Source: an uncultured Planctomycetales bacterium (lineage in GTDB: Bacteria; Omnitrophota; Gorgyraeia; Gygaellales; Profunditerraquicolaceae). Taken from it: DNA of 64,000 nucleotides. The stretch lies in contig CAZRVK010000001.1 in the NCBI GenBank assembly GCA_964603585.1, positions 438,541 to 502,540 on the forward strand. Direction: 5' to 3'. Positions 379 to 60,082 of the stretch are shown piece after piece. Within the stretch, counting starts at the first letter, position 1. Each line of letters opens with the position of its first letter. Position numbers and translations under genes: made by a program. The notes beneath the pieces are model-generated. The model searched no databases, was not told the DNA's origin, and saw only the letters and a list, made by a program, of their open reading frames with translations.

Positions 379-732
379 TCATACCTGTCCTCCTTCAACC
401 AAATCCACGGCTTTTTCAACACACCCTAAACAGGAAAGTTTGCGTTTACTGCGGATTGAGCGGCAGTTAAGAGAGCCTGCGGCTTCAACAAATCCCTGCT
501 CAATTTGAGAGGCTCGAGATGGATATTTTCTTGAAATTAAATAATGAGCGGCATAATATGCCCCGCATCTTCCTTGAGGAGCCCTGCCACCGGCGAACGC
601 AAGAAAAGAATCGATATCATTGTCCGAAACATCGAAGAGATCGGAAAAAACCTTGATTACAGCCTGGGCGCAGTTAAGCTTTACATACCCGGCTTTGCCT
701 AAAAAATGATTTTTTGCTTTTTCTTTACGCAT
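379..732 (-). CDS. C_GCAxxG_C_C family redox-active protein
   Basis: Motifs RCGAYYAAHY (C-GCAxxG) and CLGCVEKA (C-C). The long ORF-track N-terminus is rejected; the start is taken at ATG 732 (MRKEKAK). This ATG overlaps the upstream gene's stop (ATGCGTAA). Confidence 0.6.
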   Translation of the reverse strand: MRKEKAKNHFLGKAGYVKLNCAQAVIKVFSDLFDVSDNDIDSFLAFAGGRAPQGRCGAYYAAHYLISRKYPSRASQIEQGFVEAAGSLNCRSIRSKRKLSCLGCVEKAVDLVEGGQV

Positions 733-1075
733 GAAACATTCCTTTTCCATTTTTCCCTTTGGAAACAGCATATGTCCCGCCTGCAATACGGATCGCCTTG
801 CCGCAAAGGATTGCCTCCGCCACTTTTTTACGGGCAGATTCGATGATATTCCCAAAAGTTTGCCGCGAAACCCGCATTTTTTTCGCCGCATCGGCCTGAT
901 ATAACCCCTGACGGTCGGCAAAACACATCGCCTCGCATTCATCGATAGTTAAAACGATCTCTTCAAGCAGAATATCAGCTATTCCTTGAGGGACAAAATA
1001 CTTTACCTTAGGCTCGGTCCTTACGCACCGGCATTTTCTCGGCCGGCCACGAAGGCTCTTTCTATTTTTTAGCAT
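725..1075 (-). CDS. DUF134 (UPF0251) putative DNA-binding protein
   Basis: RGRPRKCRCV N-terminal Cys pair, a sigma-70 region 4-like HTH core (AAKKMRVSRQTFGNII) and a C-terminal AIRIAGG. Paralog of 59039..59347. The start is taken at MLKNRK; the ORF track extends to 1093. Confidence 0.6.
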   Translation of the reverse strand: MLKNRKSLRGRPRKCRCVRTEPKVKYFVPQGIADILLEEIVLTIDECEAMCFADRQGLYQADAAKKMRVSRQTFGNIIESARKKVAEAILCGKAIRIAGGTYAVSKGKNGKGMFHA

Positions 1076-1085
1076 ATGCCAATAA

Positions 1086-52462: not shown

Positions 52463-52497
52463 AAAAAAAACCATCCTGCAGCAAAACTGCAAGATGG
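52463..52497 (-). terminator. intrinsic terminator after the crcB-DUF190 operon
   Basis: On the minus strand, CCAUCUUGCAGuuuuGCUGCAGGAUGG is followed by UUUUUUUU. Confidence 0.6.
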
Positions 52498-52697
52498 CGG
52501 CCCGACCACCTTAACTTTCCTACCTCCAGGAATACCTGCGTATCCCCAGACCACTTATCTGTCGCAACTTAATATACCATAATCGAAGGAAAACGCAAAG
52601 TAATAGTGCTGACTCGCATACGTAGCCCAAAAGTTTCTTGCATGATCATATAAAATCTATAAGATTCCGGCCTTATCAGCCATTTGAATTAAAATAA

Positions 52698-53030
52698 TTA
52701 TTTATGCCGGTATTTAATTACCCGGGCTTTCTCAAGCGTAATCAGCCCCTCTTGCACGGTCTCATCTAAAAAAGGCAGTAGTTTATTCAGATTTTCCTCG
52801 GTATCCACAAGCTCAATAACTACCGGCAAGTCTTCCGAGAGGCGTAAGATCTTGGCTGAATGCATACGGCTGTCAGCCCCGAACCCCATGATCCCGCGGA
52901 GTACTGTCGCTCCGGCGAGGTTAAGCTCTCTGGCTTTAATGACGATCTGCTCGTATAAAGCCTTGCCCTTATATTTATCTGATTCACCCACAAATATTCG
53001 CAGCAGCATTCCCTCTTCCGGCAATTTCAT
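52698..53030 (-). CDS. DUF190 (PII-like fold) protein commonly paired with CrcB
   Basis: 110 aa. LRIFVGESDKYKGKALYEQIV matches DUF190. Lies immediately downstream of crcB. Confidence 0.75.
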   Translation of the reverse strand: MKLPEEGMLLRIFVGESDKYKGKALYEQIVIKARELNLAGATVLRGIMGFGADSRMHSAKILRLSEDLPVVIELVDTEENLNKLLPFLDETVQEGLITLEKARVIKYRHK

Positions 53031-53041
53031 TCCACACCCCC

Positions 53042-53428
53042 TTATTTAAATAAATTCAAAAACATTCTTGAGGCGGCATATCCGGCAAATACAGCACCAA
53101 TACTCAAAACCACTGAAAGAGCCGCGTTAGCGAAGGCAATACGATATTCCCCGTCTCGCATGAGGTTAAACGTTTCGAGACTGAAGGTAGAGAACGTCGT
53201 ATAGCCGCCTAAGATACCGATAAAAATAAAAAGCCTAATATTCGGAGAGATTTCAAACCGGTCGATAATCCCCCAGAGGAAACCGATCACTAAGGATCCC
53301 GTAACATTAACAACCAACGTACTGACAGGGAACGCCCCGTTTGCGAAACGGTAATCAAGCCCGCCCATAATATAACGCAGGATTGTTCCGATCGCGCCGC
53401 CTAATCCTAAAATAAAAAACCTCAACAT
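53042..53428 (-). CDS. crcB: fluoride ion channel CrcB/Fluc
   Basis: MLRFFILGLGGAIGTILRY...GGYTTFSTFS. The start is set at MLRFF because the longer ORF-track N-terminus covers the riboswitch. Confidence 0.85.
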   Translation of the reverse strand: MLRFFILGLGGAIGTILRYIMGGLDYRFANGAFPVSTLVVNVTGSLVIGFLWGIIDRFEISPNIRLFIFIGILGGYTTFSTFSLETFNLMRDGEYRIAFANAALSVVLSIGAVFAGYAASRMFLNLFK

Positions 53429-53449
53429 AAACTGATACCCCCCTTTCTT

Positions 53450-53505
53450 TTGAGTAGGAGTTATCAGCCTGTTGAGGCGGTTATTGGCGAACCCCATCGC
53501 CAGTA
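53450..53505 (-). ncRNA. fluoride riboswitch (crcB motif)
   Basis: The minus-strand RNA reads GGCGAUGGGGUUCGCCAAUAACCGCCUCAACAGGCUGAUAACUCCUAC. This matches the consensus GGCGAUGG..UUCGCC, AAACCGCC and GGCUGAU..CCUAC blocks. Confidence 0.8.
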
Positions 53506-53547
53506 TAAAGATATTGTATCAGATAAAACAAGTTCTTTTAAGTGAAA

Positions 53548-53985
53548 TTATACCTCACTCAACCAATCTTTTATTTTAGCTTCTACCTGGCCCCTAACTT
53601 CTTTTGTCTTTTTCAATTTTTCTTCATGCGATCCCATAAAAACGGAAGGATCCGGAAAACCCCAATGAAGCCGTTCTCCCTTGCCCGGGAATACTGGACA
53701 AGCCCCGGATTGCGATTCGTCGCAAACAGTGATAACGTAATCGTACTGCCTGCCTTGCTTATAAAAATCAAACACACTTTTGGTTTTGTTCTGTGATATA
53801 TCAATATCGACTTCTTTCATCGCCTCAACCACAATAGGATTGAGCTTGCCCGGTTCAAGACCGGCGCTTTCTACCTCGAAACGGTCTCCTCCATATTTCT
53901 TCAAGAACGCTTCCGCCATTTGAGACCGTGCCGAATTGTGAACGCACACAAAAAGGACTCTTTTTTTATCCATGGCTAACCACAA
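53548..53985 (-). CDS. arsC: arsenate reductase, LMW-PTP/thioredoxin-coupled family
   Basis: [20 protein letters not shown]5R P-loop plus downstream Cys residues. Confidence 0.85.
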
Positions 53986-55063
53986 CCTTAAACCAATTTT
54001 GTGTCCTTAAACAAACCTTCACCAGCATAAGCATCACCGGAACCTCAATAAGAACCCCAACGACTGTCGCTAAAGAAGCGCCTGATGAGAGCCCAAACAA
54101 AATAGTTGAAGTAGCAATCGCCACCTCAAAATGATTGCTTGCTCCCACCAATGCCGAAGGCGCCGCATCGCGATAAGGCAGCTTCAGCCACTTTGCTAAG
54201 CCATACGTTATTGCGAAAATAAGGCACGTCTGAATAAAAAGAGGTATCGCAATCAAAAGGATGATCTGGGGCTGATTGATAATCAGCTCTCCTTTAAAAG
54301 AAAATAAAAGAATCAGCGTGAGCAATAATGCGCAAATTGATACCGGCGTCAGGTAATGCAAGAATTTCTCCTCAAACCATCGAAATCCTTTCTTTGCAAT
54401 CAACCACTTTCTCGAGTAATAACCCAAGAGTAGCGGCAAGCCGACATAAATAACGACAGAAAGAACGATTGTCTGCCACGGGATAGGCATTTTATTCACC
54501 CCTAAGAGCCAACCGCCCAACGGCGCATAAAAAAACAACATAGTCAAGGAATTTATAGCGACCATAACCAGCGTGTGGCCGTCATTGCCTTTTGACAAAT
54601 GCCCCCAAATTAAGACCATGGCCGTGCATGGTGCTATGCCAAGCAAGATGCATCCGGCGATATATGACCGAAACAACTCAACCGGTAAGCCGCCTTTTAC
54701 GATCTCGGACCCCGGAAGCCACCCTTTAAACAATACCCCAAGGAAAAGCCATGCAATCGCAAGCATGGTAAACGGCTTTATGCACCAATTCACGATAAGA
54801 GTAAGAATAACCGGCTTAGGCGTCTTGCCCGCTTTAATAACCTCCGCAAAATCAATCTTGACCATGATCGGGTACATCATGAAAAATAGGCAGATTGCGA
54901 TAGGAATAGACACCTGATAAACCGAGATCTGATCCAACGCCACCGCCACTTGAGGAAACAGCTTGCCCAAAGCGATCCCAGTCCCGATACAAAGCACTAC
55001 CCATCCGGTGAGATACTTCTCAAAAAAACTTAATTTCCGTTCCTCATGAACAACGTATTCCAT
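53966..55063 (-). CDS. acr3: arsenite efflux transporter ACR3
   Basis: ACR3/ArsB-bile-acid-symporter fold with 10 TM segments. The start is taken at MEYVV. Confidence 0.85.
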
Positions 55064-55157
55064 CCACCCTCCTCGCCCACAAGGGCACACCGGCCAATCA
55101 GATAAGCCAGAAAGGCAATGGTTTGACTTCCTTTAGCCAAAGCCATATAGCCTATTG

Positions 55158-55844
55158 TTAAAATAACCGCAAGATATAAATCCCTGTATAATAGAGTCCA
55201 ACGAGAATAAAAATCACTCCGGTAATTCTTCGAGTATAAAATTCCAATTTCGTGATCTTATTAAACCAATGACTCATTGAAGTCACGCCCAGCGCAATAG
55301 CGATAGCGAACGCCAATACCGGAAGCCCAGTCCCCACTCCATAGATAAACGGCAACAACGTCCCCGCTTTGCTATTAAGCGCCAAGGGAATAAGACTGCC
55401 AAAAAATAACGCCGCTGAAACCGGGCAAAACGCCAAGGCGAATATAAGGCCCAAAAGAAAAGCACCCGGAGCGCCGGAATCAACAAGTCTATTGTGATGC
55501 TTCTGTGATAGCGCTACTCCGGGAAATTTGAGCGTGATTACCTCAAGTAGAAATAACCCCGTGATTATCAACAAAGGCCCCAATGCCTTGACCATATACT
55601 TTTGCAGAAACTGCGCAACTTGCGGCACGCTTAAAAGAGAGCTGATAATGATCCAGCCGAGAACCGCATAAGCAACCATCCTGCCAAGTGTATATGCTAA
55701 CCCTGAAATCGCCACACGCGCCGGATGAGTGATCTTTTTTGAAAGAAACGACACCGCCGCGATATTTGTAGCTAAAGGGCATGGGCTAATCGAAGTCAAT
55801 ATTCCCAGCCATAACGCAGAGCCAAAAGCAATTAATAATTCCAT
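55158..55844 (-). CDS. CcdA/DsbD-family transmembrane thiol:disulfide electron transporter
   Basis: Two TM Cys-Pro motifs (ISPCPLA and AFCPVSA), typical of CcdA. Confidence 0.6.
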   Translation of the reverse strand: MELLIAFGSALWLGILTSISPCPLATNIAAVSFLSKKITHPARVAISGLAYTLGRMVAYAVLGWIIISSLLSVPQVAQFLQKYMVKALGPLLIITGLFLLEVITLKFPGVALSQKHHNRLVDSGAPGAFLLGLIFALAFCPVSAALFFGSLIPLALNSKAGTLLPFIYGVGTGLPVLAFAIAIALGVTSMSHWFNKITKLEFYTRRITGVIFILVGLYYTGIYILRLF

Positions 55845-56263
55845 TATTGAGCGTCCTTCATAAACGCATTCACTTCGCCGGTCACGTAATCAATAAACTT
55901 CTGCTTGTTGCGAGCAAGTTCCCAGATCTTATCGAGATTCTTCGATTTAACTTCCTTCCCGTCCTTGATCATTGAGAGAATAAGTGATTTGGTATACAGC
56001 TTATAGTCATTCACAAAATGCTCGTTACCCCGATCCTCGACATTAACGACCTTGAACTCAAGATTGCCTGAATCAAGAGCATCTTTGAAATTTAAATCAA
56101 TCGCTTCCATTGAATACTTCTCCATGTTCATGCACGTAGGGCAACGAAATGATCCATGGAAATAATACGCTACGACTTTTGCTGAACTGCTTTCTGCCGC
56201 AAAGGCTATCGGAGCGCTAATTACCGCAACAACCGCCAGAATTACAAGAAGAAGTTTCTTCAC
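55844..56263 (-). CDS. secreted thioredoxin-fold CxxC protein
   Basis: GTG start preceded by AGGAGG. Signal peptide KKLLLVILAVVAVISAPIAFA. Active-site FRCPTC. The long ORF-track N-terminus is rejected because it overlaps the DGC gene. Confidence 0.5.
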   Translation of the reverse strand: MKKLLLVILAVVAVISAPIAFAAESSSAKVVAYYFHGSFRCPTCMNMEKYSMEAIDLNFKDALDSGNLEFKVVNVEDRGNEHFVNDYKLYTKSLILSMIKDGKEVKSKNLDKIWELARNKQKFIDYVTGEVNAFMKDAQ

Positions 56264-56621
56264 TTTTACCTCCTGAAATTTTATTGGCCGCTTTCTCAAT
56301 ATTTTCCTCACTAACTTGAGTCTTACCCTTCTCAAATCCGATTTCTTTAAGATTAAAAGAAATCGGATTAAATCCAGCATGTTCAAGAATCTTTTTCGAA
56401 CATAAAACCTGACATCCATCAATGGCGATAATTTTATTCGCCGCCTTCGCCGACTCGACCATACCCGGGACATGCGCTCCGATACCGGCTAAGCAAAACA
56501 TCTTTGCCTGCCCGCATTTGGCCATCTTGCGCGCCAGGCGATCGGACAATTCTCCCACATCAGACCCGCCGGAGCACGGAAATATCAAAGTACCTGCCTC
56601 TTGACACATACAATTACCCAT
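56217..56621 (-). CDS. DGC-domain protein (putative metal/metalloid chelating)
   Basis: AIDGCQVLC DGC motif and a Cys-rich C-terminus CNSGGCCGN. Confidence 0.65.
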   Translation of the reverse strand: MGNCMCQEAGTLIFPCSGGSDVGELSDRLARKMAKCGQAKMFCLAGIGAHVPGMVESAKAANKIIAIDGCQVLCSKKILEHAGFNPISFNLKEIGFEKGKTQVSEENIEKAANKISGGKSEETSSCNSGGCCGN

Positions 56622-56678
56622 TAATGTCCTCCCTTGCAGTTAGCAAGCACCCGCGCAATTTTTGCATAAACAGGGGTG

Positions 56679-56912
56679 CTATTTCGATAAAATCATTTTA
56701 ATCTCATCTTTACTTAATACCTTTCCTACCGAAATCACTGTTCCGTCGACCGCAAAGCCCGGAGTCATCATGACACCGTACTCGGTGATCTTATCAATAT
56801 CGGTAACCTTACCGATCTCGGCTTGAATGTTCAGCTCTTTAACGGCCGCCTCGGCATTGGCCGTAAGCTGTTTACATTTAGGACAACCGACACCCAAGAT
56901 TTCTATTTTCAT
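56679..56912 (-). CDS. thioredoxin-family small protein (redox-active disulfide protein 2 type)
   Basis: 77 aa with the MKIEILGVGCPKCKQL CxxC motif. Confidence 0.75.
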   Translation of the reverse strand: MKIEILGVGCPKCKQLTANAEAAVKELNIQAEIGKVTDIDKITEYGVMMTPGFAVDGTVISVGKVLSKDEIKMILSK

Positions 56913-56925
56913 TCTCTGCCTCCAT

Positions 56926-57708
56926 CTATTTTTTCACCGCTGAAACTTTTATACTCACGATAGCGTCAGAAGCGACCTCAAGATTGTCAAACATGGCATC
57001 AACCGGATAACTGGCTTGACTTATTACCTTAATATCCTGAAACCCCGCCTGCTCAATAAAACATAAATATTCTTCTTTCTTAATTGCTCCGGCAAGACAT
57101 CCCACATATGCCTCAACAGAATCCCTGATTTCTCGCGGAAGTTCTTTTGCCAACACCAAATCCGAGACCATCAACCTACCTTCTACTTTCAAGGCCCGGT
57201 ACGCCTCTTTAAATACTGTTTCTTTATCAGGTGACAAGTTAATAACGCAATTTGATATGATCACATCGATTGAATTGTCTTCTACCGGAAGTTTTTCGAT
57301 CTCCCCCAGCCGAAAATCCACATTGGCATAGTTACCCTTTTTTGCATTTTCTTGCGCTTTAGCGACCATCTCCGGCGTCATGTCAACGCCGATGACCCTG
57401 CCGGTCTTGCCGACACGTTGGGCCGACAAAAATGCATCGAATCCCGCGCCGCTTCCTAAATCGAGCACAACATCGCCTTCCTTTAATGAAGCAAGGGCTA
57501 CCGGATTCCCGCATCCAAACCCTAAATTTGCCCCTTCAGGAACAGCATTAAGCTCTGCATCACTGTATCCCACTTTTTTACTAATATCTTCCGCCTGCGT
57601 TACACCGCCACAACACGAATTCGAAGAACAGCATGACTTCTTTTTCGACAACGCTTTTGCGTAGCCGTCCCTAACGATCTTTTTGATTTTATCCGCTTCG
57701 TTTTTCAT
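56926..57708 (-). CDS. arsM: arsenite S-adenosylmethionine methyltransferase
   Basis: SAM motif VLDLGSGAGFD plus conserved As-binding cysteines (GCGNP, ISNCVINL). Confidence 0.85.
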   Translation of the reverse strand: MKNEADKIKKIVRDGYAKALSKKKSCCSSNSCCGGVTQAEDISKKVGYSDAELNAVPEGANLGFGCGNPVALASLKEGDVVLDLGSGAGFDAFLSAQRVGKTGRVIGVDMTPEMVAKAQENAKKGNYANVDFRLGEIEKLPVEDNSIDVIISNCVINLSPDKETVFKEAYRALKVEGRLMVSDLVLAKELPREIRDSVEAYVGCLAGAIKKEEYLCFIEQAGFQDIKVISQASYPVDAMFDNLEVASDAIVSIKVSAVKK

Positions 57709-57873
57709 TTATATCCCTTCCCTCTTAAGTTTTGAGACATTCTCTTTATCGATCTGTTTCTTGATTACCTCTCTAACAAAATCCAGTGCCTCATCTTTAT
57801 CCCGATCAAGGACAATCTGTTCAATCCTAAGCAAATCCGCCTCACTAAGATTAATTGTCTTTTTAAACGTCAT
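57709..57873 (-). CDS. cryptic 54-aa ORF, ribbon-helix-helix-like (below the ORF-track size cutoff)
   Basis: MTFKKTINLSEADLLRIEQIVLDRDKDEALDFVREVIKKQIDKENVSKLKREGI. Its ATG overlaps the arsP stop (ATGA). Its TAA is immediately followed by the arsM ATG. Confidence 0.4.
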   Translation of the reverse strand: MTFKKTINLSEADLLRIEQIVLDRDKDEALDFVREVIKKQIDKENVSKLKREGI

Positions 57874-59042
57874 TTGACTATCGTTCCAAAAATCATCCCG
57901 CTTATCGTCGCCATAATGACCACAAGGCCAACATACACAACAGTTTTTTTTGTACCGATAACTTCACGAATAACCAGCATGCTCGGCAAGCTCAAAGCAG
58001 GCCCAGCCAGAAGAAGCGCCAGCGCTGGCCCCTTCCCCATACCAGATCCGATCAAACCCTGTAAAATAGGCACTTCTGTAAGCGTGGCGAAATACATGAA
58101 CGCCGCTACGATCGATGAAAAAAAGTTCGCCCTGAAAGAATTGCCTCCGACCATCGCCTCCACCCAGCTGGAAGGAATAACGCCTTCATGGCCAACCCTA
58201 CCCAAGAGAAACCCTGATATCAAAACCCCACCTAAAAGAAGCGGCAATATCTGTAGGGCGAATCCCCATGAAGCGGATGTCCACTCTTTAAGTTCATCTT
58301 TCTTAAACCAATTAACGAGCGTCAACCCTAAAACTACCAGGAAAAATCCGGTAATCCACCATTTAGATGCATAGATCAAACTCCAAATGCCGGTATCGCC
58401 CTCTATCGGCTTGGCCCAATTAGCAAACACGAGTATTGCTACCATCGAAAAGAAATAAACAATATCTTTCCATAACGGACGGCTTGCCTTAACCTCTCCA
58501 AATTGAACATCTCCGTTAGCGTGGCGGGCACGCTCCTCCTTTAGGAAAATCAAATGCATGAATAACCCTATAACAATACTAAAAATGACTGCCCCAATAG
58601 CCCTGCCTAAGCCTAACTGCCAGCCAAGGATCCGGGCTGTCAGGATAATCGCTAAAACATTGATGGCCGGTCCTGAATATAGGAATGCAATCGCGGGACC
58701 CAGCCCAGCGCCTCTCTTATAAATCCCCGAGAATAACGGCAGAACCGTACATGAACAAACAGCAAGAATAGTCCCGGACACTGAAGCCACGCTGTAAGAA
58801 AGAAACTTGTTTGCCTTGGCTCCAAAATACTTCATCACCGACGCTTGGCTGACGAACACAGATATCGCTCCGGCTATAAAGAACGCCGGAACAAGACACA
58901 AAAGAACATGTTCCCGGGCGTACCATTTAACAAGCGCTAATGCCTCAAAGAGCGCGTTAGTAAACCGCAGATTCTCAATTGGTAAGTAAAAACACGCCAA
59001 GAATACCGCTACAACGTATAATAACTTCTTCCACTCGTTCAT
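57870..59042 (-). CDS. arsP: DUF318 permease, ArsP-like organoarsenical efflux permease
   Basis: Multi-TM protein with the TM Cys motif AVCSCTVLP (compare ArsP TPFCSCSxxP). Embedded in the ars operon. Confidence 0.7.
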   Translation of the reverse strand: MNEWKKLLYVVAVFLACFYLPIENLRFTNALFEALALVKWYAREHVLLCLVPAFFIAGAISVFVSQASVMKYFGAKANKFLSYSVASVSGTILAVCSCTVLPLFSGIYKRGAGLGPAIAFLYSGPAINVLAIILTARILGWQLGLGRAIGAVIFSIVIGLFMHLIFLKEERARHANGDVQFGEVKASRPLWKDIVYFFSMVAILVFANWAKPIEGDTGIWSLIYASKWWITGFFLVVLGLTLVNWFKKDELKEWTSASWGFALQILPLLLGGVLISGFLLGRVGHEGVIPSSWVEAMVGGNSFRANFFSSIVAAFMYFATLTEVPILQGLIGSGMGKGPALALLLAGPALSLPSMLVIREVIGTKKTVVYVGLVVIMATISGMIFGTIVK

Positions 59043-59347
59043 TTCTTAACCATCCTTCCTCCAATAGTACAGCACCCGCCCTCGATACGGATCGCCTTAA
59101 CATTAACCAATGCTTCCGTTACCTTCTTGCAGGCTGAAGCAACTATCCGCGAGAATGTCGGCCGGGATATTTTCATCACCTTTGCGGCATCCTTCTGTTT
59201 CATTCCCTCAAGGCAAGCCAAACGCATCGCTTCAAACTCATCAATGCTTAAAACCACGCCATCAAGTTCATTTAATGGTTTGCACTTAGGGCGAAAACAT
59301 CTCTCACCCGGCAAACATTTAACCCACCTGGTTTTTTTCGGCCTCAT
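59039..59347 (-). CDS. DUF134 (UPF0251) putative DNA-binding protein, first gene of the ars operon
   Basis: WVKCLPGERCFRPKC N-terminal Cys motifs, an HTH core AAKVMKISRPTFSRIV and a C-terminal AIRIEGGCC. Paralog of 725..1075. Overlaps arsP by 4 bp. Confidence 0.6.
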   Translation of the reverse strand: MRPKKTRWVKCLPGERCFRPKCKPLNELDGVVLSIDEFEAMRLACLEGMKQKDAAKVMKISRPTFSRIVASACKKVTEALVNVKAIRIEGGCCTIGGRMVKK

Positions 59348-59384
59348 AGCTACCCCTTTTAGTTATGCACCATTGTTCATAATG

Positions 59385-59412
59385 ATTATATCACGAATTC
59401 GTGCCGGGTCAA
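59385..59412 (-). promoter_or_regulatory. sigma70 promoter of the ars operon with an embedded 12-bp palindrome (candidate operator)
   Basis: On the minus strand, TTGACC, then cgg-CACGAATTCGTG-a as a 16-nt spacer, then TATAAT. The perfect palindrome CACGAATTCGTG (59392..59403) sits between the -35 and -10 elements. Confidence 0.55.
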
Positions 59413-59469: not shown

Positions 59470-59556
59470 CAGGGAAAAAAGGGGGAAAAAAGGGGACGTT
59501 TCGAAAAAAGGGGACGTTTCTATTTTTTTTAGAAAAATAGAAACGTCCCCTTTATT
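59470..59556. repeat. palindromic element copy 2 (same 21-bp arms as 36320..36390) with an extra partial arm and AAAAGGGG direct repeats
   Basis: GGGAAAAAAGGGGGAAAAAAGGGGACGTTTCgAAAAAAGGGGACGTTTCTATTTTTtttagAAAAATAGAAACGTCCCCTTT. The arms are identical to those at locus 1. Confidence 0.7.
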
Positions 59557-59567
59557 GCAGGCACACC

Positions 59568-60016
59568 GGCACAATCTGGATGCTTGCGTTAAAAAGTTGG
59601 ACGCGCTTTTCAATATGCGCTTAAACGAAGAGATCAGCCCAGAGGAATATGCTCGGAAGAAAGACGATCTGACGAAGGCAAAGCAGAAATATGAATGATT
59701 GATCGCGGATACGCAAGACCGCGTTGAAACATGGCTCAAACGGGCTGAAGATATGTTTACATTCGCCCAAACCGCCCAGAAACGGTTCGACACGGGCACT
59801 TTGGAGGACAAGCGGTATGTTCTCTCGTGTCTGGGCACAAAACTCGTCTTACACGGCAAGAAACTGCAATTTGAGCAGGAAAAGTGCCTTGCCATGTTCG
59901 AATGTGTGGCACCTGACGTACAAAGCCTCCACAACAGGTTAGAACCGACGCAACTCGTTGATTCTATGACCAGTTGGGAGGCTTTATATGCTCAAAATAA
60001 AAAATGGGGTGGGTAA
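59568..60016 (+). pseudogene. large serine recombinase C-terminal remnant with in-frame TGA
   Basis: Translation gives LDALFNMRLNEEISPEEYARKKDDLTKAKQKYE, then a stop, then LIADTQDRVETWLKRAE...KRYVLSCLGTKLVLHGKKLQFE. This has the coiled-coil and C-terminal beta-strand pattern of large serine recombinases. There is no catalytic N-domain and an in-frame TGA at 59696..59698. Confidence 0.5.
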
Positions 60017-60082
60017 CGGGGATCGAACCCGCAAACCTTCTGAGCCACAGTCAGACGCTCTAACCAGTTGAGCTATACCCAC
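60004..60082 (-). tRNA. tRNA-His (anticodon GTG)
   Basis: Cloverleaf with G-1:C73 and acceptor GTGGGTA/TACCCAC. D-arm GCUC-AACUGGUUA-GAGC. Anticodon loop CUGUGGC. T-arm GCGGG-UUCGAUC-CCCGU. CCA is encoded. Confidence 0.85.

Follow-up and report, generated by a model that had tools for sequence, protein, structure and literature searches.

To our knowledge, arsenic resistance (ars) operons are controlled solely by repressors of the ArsR/SmtB family. Coordination of As(III) needs three thiolates, a vicinal pair among them, and such sites arose independently in different ArsR lineages. Some accessory ars genes are also familiar: the ArsEFG set reportedly reduces the nitro groups of roxarsone and nitarsone and exports the amino compounds that result. 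A further point of comparison is Bacillus subtilis DeoR, a SorC-family protein (PDB 7BHY/8R7Y) whose dimeric DNA-binding domain (DBD) makes base-specific contacts to TTGAACA within ATTGAACAAAATTTCAAT (PMC11229326). Here we describe an ars operon within a 64-kb stretch of contig CAZRVK010000001.1 (the window) from an uncultured bacterium of the phylum Omnitrophota, in which the first gene encodes a small, cysteine-bearing DUF134/UPF0251 protein. On balance we favor an explanation in which this protein switches the operon as a repressor in place of ArsR, with arsenicals as its effector. Literature searches for DUF134/UPF0251/COG1342/PF02001 returned incidental mentions and no functional study, and those for Omnitrophota arsenic genes and non-ArsR ars regulators returned nothing relevant; what is new here is an ars operon placed under a regulator other than ArsR, along with an initial clue to the function of DUF134, the ArsEFG part being already known.

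We assessed the association of DUF134 with arsenic genes in two sets of related loci. The first came from a scan of GTDB with one genome per species and yielded 80 loci with orthologues 70-91% identical to the window protein, and the second comprised 80 metagenome loci at 38-63% identity to their seeds, which were divergent DUF134 proteins with a C-terminal Cys-Cys pair. Loci were annotated by tblastn with the window's ars proteins as queries, a DUF134 gene was counted as linked when an ars gene started within 700 nt on the same strand, and scoring was confined to DUF134 genes behind which the sequence extended for at least 700 nt. By this measure an ars gene followed 117 of 118 DUF134 genes of the Cys-Cys type, drawn from 80 species-level genomes and 54 metagenome contigs; at the sole exception (L078) an ArsR-like open reading frame (ORF) intervenes, followed by arsEFG. 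DUF134 genes without the Cys-Cys pair had a downstream ars gene at 2 of 19 scorable loci, and both proved to be degenerate members of the Cys-Cys clade, one reading GGSC and the other carrying a frameshift. One of the 17 unlinked loci (L157) has a canonical ArsP gene about 2.6 kb downstream, past the 700-nt limit, and generic DUF134 genes show no ars linkage. The association between the Cys-Cys pair and ars genes is strong (Fisher p 1e-18, with kinship among the sequences not corrected for). The cargo behind DUF134 falls into at least 40 architectures, among them DUF134-acr3, DUF134-arsC-acr3, DUF134-arsM-acr3-arsC, DUF134-arsP alone and the full ten genes, and DUF134 is the sole constant gene. 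A constant head gene combined with modular cargo points to a dedicated regulator, so the comparison of DUF134 neighborhoods, which an earlier reading made from the letters of the window alone (the sequence-only reading) had put forward as a check, supports a regulatory role.

Alignment of the regions upstream of DUF134 revealed a 20-bp inverted repeat that is present in 81 of 81 sequences (the window and 80 related loci), with the consensus TTATGAAC-N4-GTKCATAA, also given as TTATGAAC-N4-GTTCATAA. In the window this element begins 2 nt past the -10 box, ahead of the ribosome-binding site, and stops 15 nt short of the ATG. Across the 81 sequences it lies 12-22 nt upstream of the start codon in all loci but one. 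Promoter elements of the form TTGAC-16/17-TAnAAT stand before it in 99 of the 123 related promoters with sufficient upstream sequence, the operator most commonly starting 2 nt beyond the -10 box. The window's own promoter, TTGACC-16-TGATATAAT at 59412..59385 (-), matches 11 of 12 consensus positions. TTATGAACAATGGTGCATAA is the sole copy of the operator in the window, where no extra copies of this type, or of the type found at the window's second DUF134 paralog (below), were detected as regulon members. The predicted operator spans the transcription start, and the promoter is close to consensus; a site so placed favors repression over activation. The DUF134 protein is very probably an operator-binding autoregulator of the ars operon, and judging by operator position it would quite probably act as a repressor.

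The sequence-only reading had drawn attention to a different element, the perfect 12-bp palindrome CACGAATTCGTG between the -35 and -10 hexamers. The palindrome is indeed there, and its perfect symmetry within the promoter spacer is what speaks for DUF134 binding at this site. The proposed operator role did not survive comparison: CACGAATTCGTG is absent from all of about 130 related promoters, including those of relatives with a protein 86-91% identical, the spacer is variable among relatives in the aligned upstream regions, and the window is rich in perfect 12-bp palindromes (23 observed against 16 expected from composition). With another element both conserved and co-varying with the protein, binding to CACGAATTCGTG is scarcely credible; we rejected it as an operator, and it is probably window-specific and fortuitous.

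We then compared the recognition helices of DUF134 proteins with their cognate half-sites. SRPT helices pair with ATGAAC..GTTCAT in 107 of 108 cases, [HS]RST helices with ATGCAC..GTGCAT (left half 16/16, right half 14/16), and HQST helices with ATGCAT..ATGCAT (2/2). The divergent HRST clade is apparently also from Omnitrophota, on one named match. Generic DUF134 proteins (loci L139-L164) extend the pattern, SRQTFGR occurring with TTATGRGC and SRQTFGN with TTATTRGC, and a palindrome of like architecture lies 10-30 nt upstream in 18 of these 26 loci, against 0.2 expected from shuffled sequences. In condensed form the code reads SRPT/GAAC, xRST/GCAC, HQST/GCAT, SRQTFGR/G[AG]GC and SRQTFGN/T[AG]GC. 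Autoregulation through a palindrome of such architecture is therefore predicted to be general to the DUF134 family. Taken together, synteny, operator and covariation make the head gene's product very probably a transcription factor, as the sequence-only reading had supposed.

The closest solved homologue agrees with this assignment. A search with the family profile against PDB matched the B. subtilis DeoR DBD (E 2.6e-7), whose helix-turn-helix (HTH) reads ISRPTVSRLL, so that DeoR and the ars DUF134 protein share an identical recognition-helix start, ISRPT. The DeoR operator ATTGAACAAAATTTCAAT has matching GAAC-N4-TTC geometry, with TTGAAC-N4-TTTCAA in DeoR corresponding to ATGAAC-N4-GTTCAT in ars DUF134. 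DeoR, which acts on a 39-bp operator as a tetramer, has an effector domain for sugar phosphates (about 260 aa), whereas the DUF134 protein has just short N- and C-terminal arms around its HTH. It falls outside the SorC/DeoR family, since residues 38-75 alone align with DeoR and the effector domain is absent from its 102 aa, and outside the sigma-70 family, since its region-4 matches are sub-threshold (16-20 bits against 24-26) and it is too short to hold region 2. Pfam assigned it to PF02001, above the gathering threshold over the full domain, with additional sub-threshold matches to sigma70_r4 and HTH_23/29. AlphaFold2 (AF2) modeled a confident three-helix HTH over residues 30-80, with the HTH itself at approximately residues 35-80, and Foldseek on this model returned sigma-70 region 4, ECF sigma factors and the DeoR DBD rather than winged-helix ArsR. 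Sequence and profile searches found no solved DUF134 structure, the DeoR HTH being the sole match.

Absence of an ArsR/SmtB repressor from the operon had been part of the sequence-only reading, and within the window it holds. A hidden Markov model (HMM) built from five ArsR/SmtB/CadC sequences, applied to all frames at E<=10, found no ArsR/SmtB-like ORF in the 64-kb window, a scan that reached 4.6 kb past the promoter and 53 kb past arsC. In 84 related loci (up to ±10 kb) the same HMM found two clear and two weak ArsR-like ORFs, and there were no HTH_5 or HTH_20 Pfam matches among the annotated neighbors of relatives. ArsR-like ORFs near DUF134-ars units were seen in L033 (2573-2881), L078 (1206-1808), where the ORF sits between DUF134 and arsE, and L070 (994-1329). 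As some DUF134-ars loci have such an ORF nearby, the two regulator types can coexist. The DUF134 protein is itself no ArsR/SmtB member, being without the winged-helix HTH_5/HTH_20 by both Pfam and fold search. The two share a position as first operon gene, a length of about 100 aa and a palindromic operator overlapping the promoter, with autoregulation predicted and a dimer probable for DUF134; the DUF134 clade also has specific cysteines, including a vicinal pair, that make an S3 As(III) site possible, and the cargo (acr3, arsC, arsM, arsP) is common to both. Unlike ArsR, DUF134 belongs to another family and fold, with a three-helix HTH of the sigma70-region-4/DeoR type, and its operator sequence differs.

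An ArsR/SmtB protein encoded elsewhere in the genome might nevertheless control the operon, leaving DUF134 some other role such as that of a metallochaperone. The confinement of the scan to 64 kb and the ArsR-like ORFs in four related loci, two clear and two weak, speak for such an arrangement, which we regard as very improbable: the operator changes in step with the recognition helix of DUF134, DUF134 takes the arsR position in minimal three-gene operons, and its HTH shares ancestry with a domain proven to bind an operator.

The cysteines of the window protein that are specific to its clade are C11, C17, C22, (C45), C92 and C93. In a set of 76 homologues taken without selection, C17, C92 and C93 never vary, and conservation of C11, C22 and C45 is 90% or higher. 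The wider family (150 representatives of 3137 clusters at 50% identity) has Y17, G22 and D45, with variable non-cysteine residues at 92/93, which makes the cysteines a novelty of the ars-linked clade. All 131 ars-linked sequences have the Cys-Cys pair and at least one N-terminal cysteine (C11/C17/C22), and the minimal set, exactly C11, C92 and C93, occurs in three loci (L131, L134 and L136) heading short arsC or arsC-acr3 units. These residues are obvious sensor candidates and their pattern fits, we infer, an As(III)-thiolate switch; by analogy with ArsR, we lean toward trivalent arsenicals acting through them. Thiol-based sensing by the head DUF134 protein, as first proposed, accordingly retains likely candidates in these residues. 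The extension of that proposal to DUF134 proteins in general fails, as the ars-clade cysteines are missing from the 150 wider-family representatives and from the window's second paralog.

Alternatively, the DUF134 protein could be an operator-binding autoregulator whose cysteines respond to redox or thiol stress or serve as ligands of a Zn or Fe-S cofactor, without direct arsenic binding, in which case the ars genes would follow general thiol depletion or cofactor state. This would account for five conserved cysteines where an S3 arsenic site requires three; many generic DUF134 proteins, moreover, have C-terminal CxxC...CxxC tails resembling zinc ribbons, and other paralogs adjoin genes of redox or Fe-S type, for example C_GCAxxG_C_C and Nitro_FeMo-Co. 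The exclusive tie of the Cys-Cys clade to arsenic genes (117/118 loci) and the retention of exactly three cysteines, including the vicinal pair, in its most reduced members both argue for an arsenical effector instead, and we consider the redox or cofactor alternative unlikely, albeit the most serious of those weighed here.

A further possibility is that DUF134 sets just a basal, autoregulated level of expression, or that the arsenic response needs a partner: the DGC-domain protein, an unlinked sensor or the product of the 54-aa ORF. This last product matches RHH_8 weakly (E 0.0095) and has a coil-helix-helix AF2 model with a predicted local distance difference test (pLDDT) score of 80, so that its fold is possibly ribbon-helix-helix, and the DGC protein has a Cys-rich tail. 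Both genes are missing from most related operons, whereas the operator and DUF134 are always there, and minimal operons consist of DUF134, arsC and acr3 alone; we therefore hold either version of this possibility to be improbable. The 54-aa ORF was rejected as the real regulator for the same patchy distribution and because no significant fold match to PDB was found. It is a real, conserved accessory gene, occurring in 24 of 160 related loci (given as 12/80 GTDB and 4/80 metagenome loci, subsets that do not sum to this count), always between arsP and arsM or arsE. Its homologues form 38 clusters at >=70% identity, with no Pfam domain in any, and the few named ones are all from Omnitrophota. The DGC gene, found in a minority of related operons only, is likewise accessory.

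In the explanation we favor, a small dimeric DUF134 HTH protein would, in the absence of arsenic, occupy TTATGAAC-N4-GTKCATAA over the transcription start and thereby keep its own gene and the entire ars operon from being transcribed. C92-C93, which follow the conserved IEGG strand, would join with one to three of C11, C17 and C22 in binding As(III) and possibly also trivalent methyl- or aryl-arsenicals. Such binding would hold the N- and C-terminal segments to each other and lower the affinity for DNA, leading to derepression. Comparative evidence supports the link between regulator and operon, the predicted operator and the specificity of protein for operator, while we infer the sign of regulation, from operator position, and likewise what the cysteines do and that the effector is an arsenical.

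Several points weigh against this explanation. The case rests on sequences of uncultured organisms, with binding and expression predicted, and its counts are phylogenetically dependent, nearly all sequences coming from one phylum. The ArsR scan draws on an HMM of five sequences and on 64 kb of genome, and a few related loci (L033, L078 and L070) do have an ArsR-like ORF nearby. The AF2 model, confident for the HTH core alone, is uninformative as a test of cysteine proximity because both protein ends, which bear the cysteines, have pLDDT <50. The five conserved cysteines, finally, could equally form a Zn or Fe-S site.

Somewhat more guardedly, and by a narrow preference, we propose that Cys-Cys DUF134 proteins are a second, independent family of arsenic-sensing repressors that displaces ArsR across Omnitrophota, and that DUF134 as a whole (>3000 clusters at 50% identity) consists of miniature one-component autoregulators reading TTAT-KNNC-N4-GNNM-ATAA by a helix/half-site code. 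If true, the code would permit prediction of operators and regulons for the entire family, and the smaller, non-ArsR scaffold would represent a fresh convergent evolution of a metalloid switch. DUF134, a long-standing Pfam DUF widespread in anaerobes and archaea, would gain its first functional assignment together with a DNA target. On the practical side, the protein could provide a compact part for arsenic biosensors and improve arsenic-regulon annotation in an abundant uncultured phylum, and the operator sequence, the five cysteines and the predicted specificity code together give a concrete binding test.

Table 1. Coordinates of the ars operon, its promoter region and the second DUF134 locus in the window.
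Feature	Coordinates	Strand	Evidence or remark
DUF134/UPF0251 protein, 102 aa	59039..59347	-	PF02001, 76 bits vs cut-off 27, residues 2-91
ArsP_1-family permease, 390 aa, AVCSC motif	57870..59042	-	PF03773, 261 bits
54-aa ORF, cysteine-free	57709..57873	-	conserved among homologues
ArsM, As(III) S-adenosylmethionine methyltransferase	56926..57708	-	NF008823, 356.7 bits vs cut-off 263
ArsE-type cytoplasmic thioredoxin-like protein, CPKC	56679..56912	-	TIGR00412 MTH895/ArsE, 102 bits vs cut-off 62
DGC-domain protein, Cys-rich C-terminal tail SSCNSGGCCGN	56217..56621	-	PF08859, 103 bits
ArsF-family protein, 139 aa, CPTC, signal peptide or membrane anchor	55844..56263	-	NF040494, 108.5 bits vs cut-off 60
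ArsG-family membrane protein, CcdA/DsbD_2 fold, two membrane cysteines	55158..55844	-	NF040495, 288 bits vs cut-off 200; PF13386
ACR3 arsenite efflux permease	53966..55090	-	TIGR00832, 409 bits vs cut-off 282.8
ArsC, thioredoxin-coupled arsenate reductase of the low-molecular-weight protein tyrosine phosphatase (LMW-PTP) type	53548..53985	-	PF01451, 69 bits
Conserved predicted operator TTATGAACAATGGTGCATAA = TTATGAAC-AATG-GTGCATAA, 20-bp inverted repeat	59363..59382	.	upstream alignment
-10 hexamer TATAAT	59385..59390	-	TGA before hexamer (extended -10)
Perfect 12-bp palindrome CACGAATTCGTG	59392..59403	.	inside -35/-10 spacer, single copy in window
-35 hexamer TTGACC	59407..59412	-	16-nt spacer to -10
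Terminator-like hairpin, GGGGACGTTTC repeats	59492..59555	.	near-perfect, long, A/T runs on both sides
Second DUF134 paralog, HTH VSRQTFGN, without ars-clade cysteines	725..1075	-	PF02001, 81 bits (ORF 725-1093)
Family-type predicted operator TTATTGGCATATGCTAAAAA (minus strand) of second paralog	1066..1085	.	1 mismatch to SRQTFGN-type consensus, 0 expected by chance

The operon itself comprises ten same-strand genes at 53548-59347 (-), with the Pfam and NCBIfam profile matches given in Table 1, and the ten-gene minus-strand layout of the sequence-only reading was confirmed. Overlaps of 1-47 nt or gaps of 0-94 nt occur between neighboring genes, the start of the ArsP_1 permease gene overlapping the DUF134 stop by 4 nt. 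The presence of an arsenite efflux permease (ACR3) and an arsenate reductase (LMW-PTP ArsC) in one transcription unit identifies it as an ars operon. ArsC scored 122.7 bits against TIGR02691, under the equivalog cut-off of 174.3, and its start may be the ATG at 53973; the real start of ACR3 may likewise be the ATG at 55063. The GTG start of the ArsF-family gene is preceded by an AGGAGG ribosome-binding site. The nearest homologues come from Candidatus Omnitrophota metagenome-assembled genomes.

Part of this operon corresponds to a described system. The proteins in question exceed the cut-offs of the ArsE, ArsF and ArsG models, and the DGC gene lies between arsE and arsF. ArsEFG of Shewanella putrefaciens has an equal gene order, while the window's arsEFG genes, unlike those of S. 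putrefaciens, form part of a larger operon that also encodes ArsP, ArsM, DGC and the DUF134 regulator. From their sequences it is a reasonable reading that cytoplasmic ArsE (CPKC), CcdA/DsbD_2-like ArsG and secreted ArsF (CPTC) resemble, in that order, a trans-membrane thiol-disulfide relay. To this extent the thiol-relay module of the sequence-only reading stands, though its components are not unrecognized proteins but the named ArsE, ArsF and ArsG families, whose names go back to Chen, Zhang & Rosen 2019 as that work is cited in PMC9144182. The relay look of ArsG sits uneasily with the annotation of its family as an efflux permease.

Two types of permease occupy the position behind DUF134. 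The 390-aa ArsP_1 permease is the commonest second gene of related operons, and a canonical 317-aa ArsP with the motif TPFCSCS, the vicinal Cys-x-Cys motif of C. jejuni ArsP, substitutes for it in about one third. The window permease carries its CSC motif as AVCSCTV and is 20-25% identical to the 317-aa TPFCSCS-type ArsP. These two unrelated-looking ArsP_1 types alternate as second gene in L063, L069, L071, L072, L079 and others, with TPFCSCSSIP in the canonical type; in L071 a thioredoxin-reductase-like gene and one for a ZIP-like transporter come after the canonical-type ArsP.

The window's second DUF134 paralog heads a C_GCAxxG_C_C "putative redox-active" gene (379 to about 750), a pairing kept in L056, and this bears out the earlier observation that a second paralog heads a Cys-rich redox gene. 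Its predicted operator TTATTGGCATATGCTAAAAA overlaps the -10 box and has a central CATATG that includes the start codon, which suggests that the transcript is leaderless and autoregulated. The same operator-over-ATG arrangement was also seen in L145, L148 and L154. Generic and ars-clade DUF134 proteins have in common an N-terminal RPxKxRxV...P...F.P arm and a C-terminal KA[IL]RIEGG strand; unlike the ars clade, generic members are without C17, C22, C45 and C92-C93 and often have longer C-terminal tails. In L001-L004 (890-1575) another DUF134 paralog heads Nitro_FeMo-Co (PF02579) and metallo-beta-lactamase-fold genes, so the DUF134 paralogs of one genome head differing small operons.

The ars operon is well delimited, with a tRNA gene upstream (60008-60082) and, downstream, a fluoride riboswitch (53448-53510) that opens an independent crcB-DUF190 unit. 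The terminator-like hairpin, situated between the tRNA gene and the ars promoter, probably terminates transcription in both directions and shields the promoter from the tRNA gene, and the tRNA-adjacent location hints at an integration hotspot. The riboswitch (RF01734, 61.5 bits, minus strand) comes directly after arsC and controls crcB (53042-53497) and DUF190 (52698-53030); because it starts a separate fluoride-resistance unit, the ars operon ends at 53548. Further downstream lies a candidate nhaA-I (Na+-responsive) riboswitch at 52492-52553 (-), scoring 37.3 bits against an Rfam gathering threshold of 37; taken with the ars and fluoride units, this candidate points to a series of ion-stress units.

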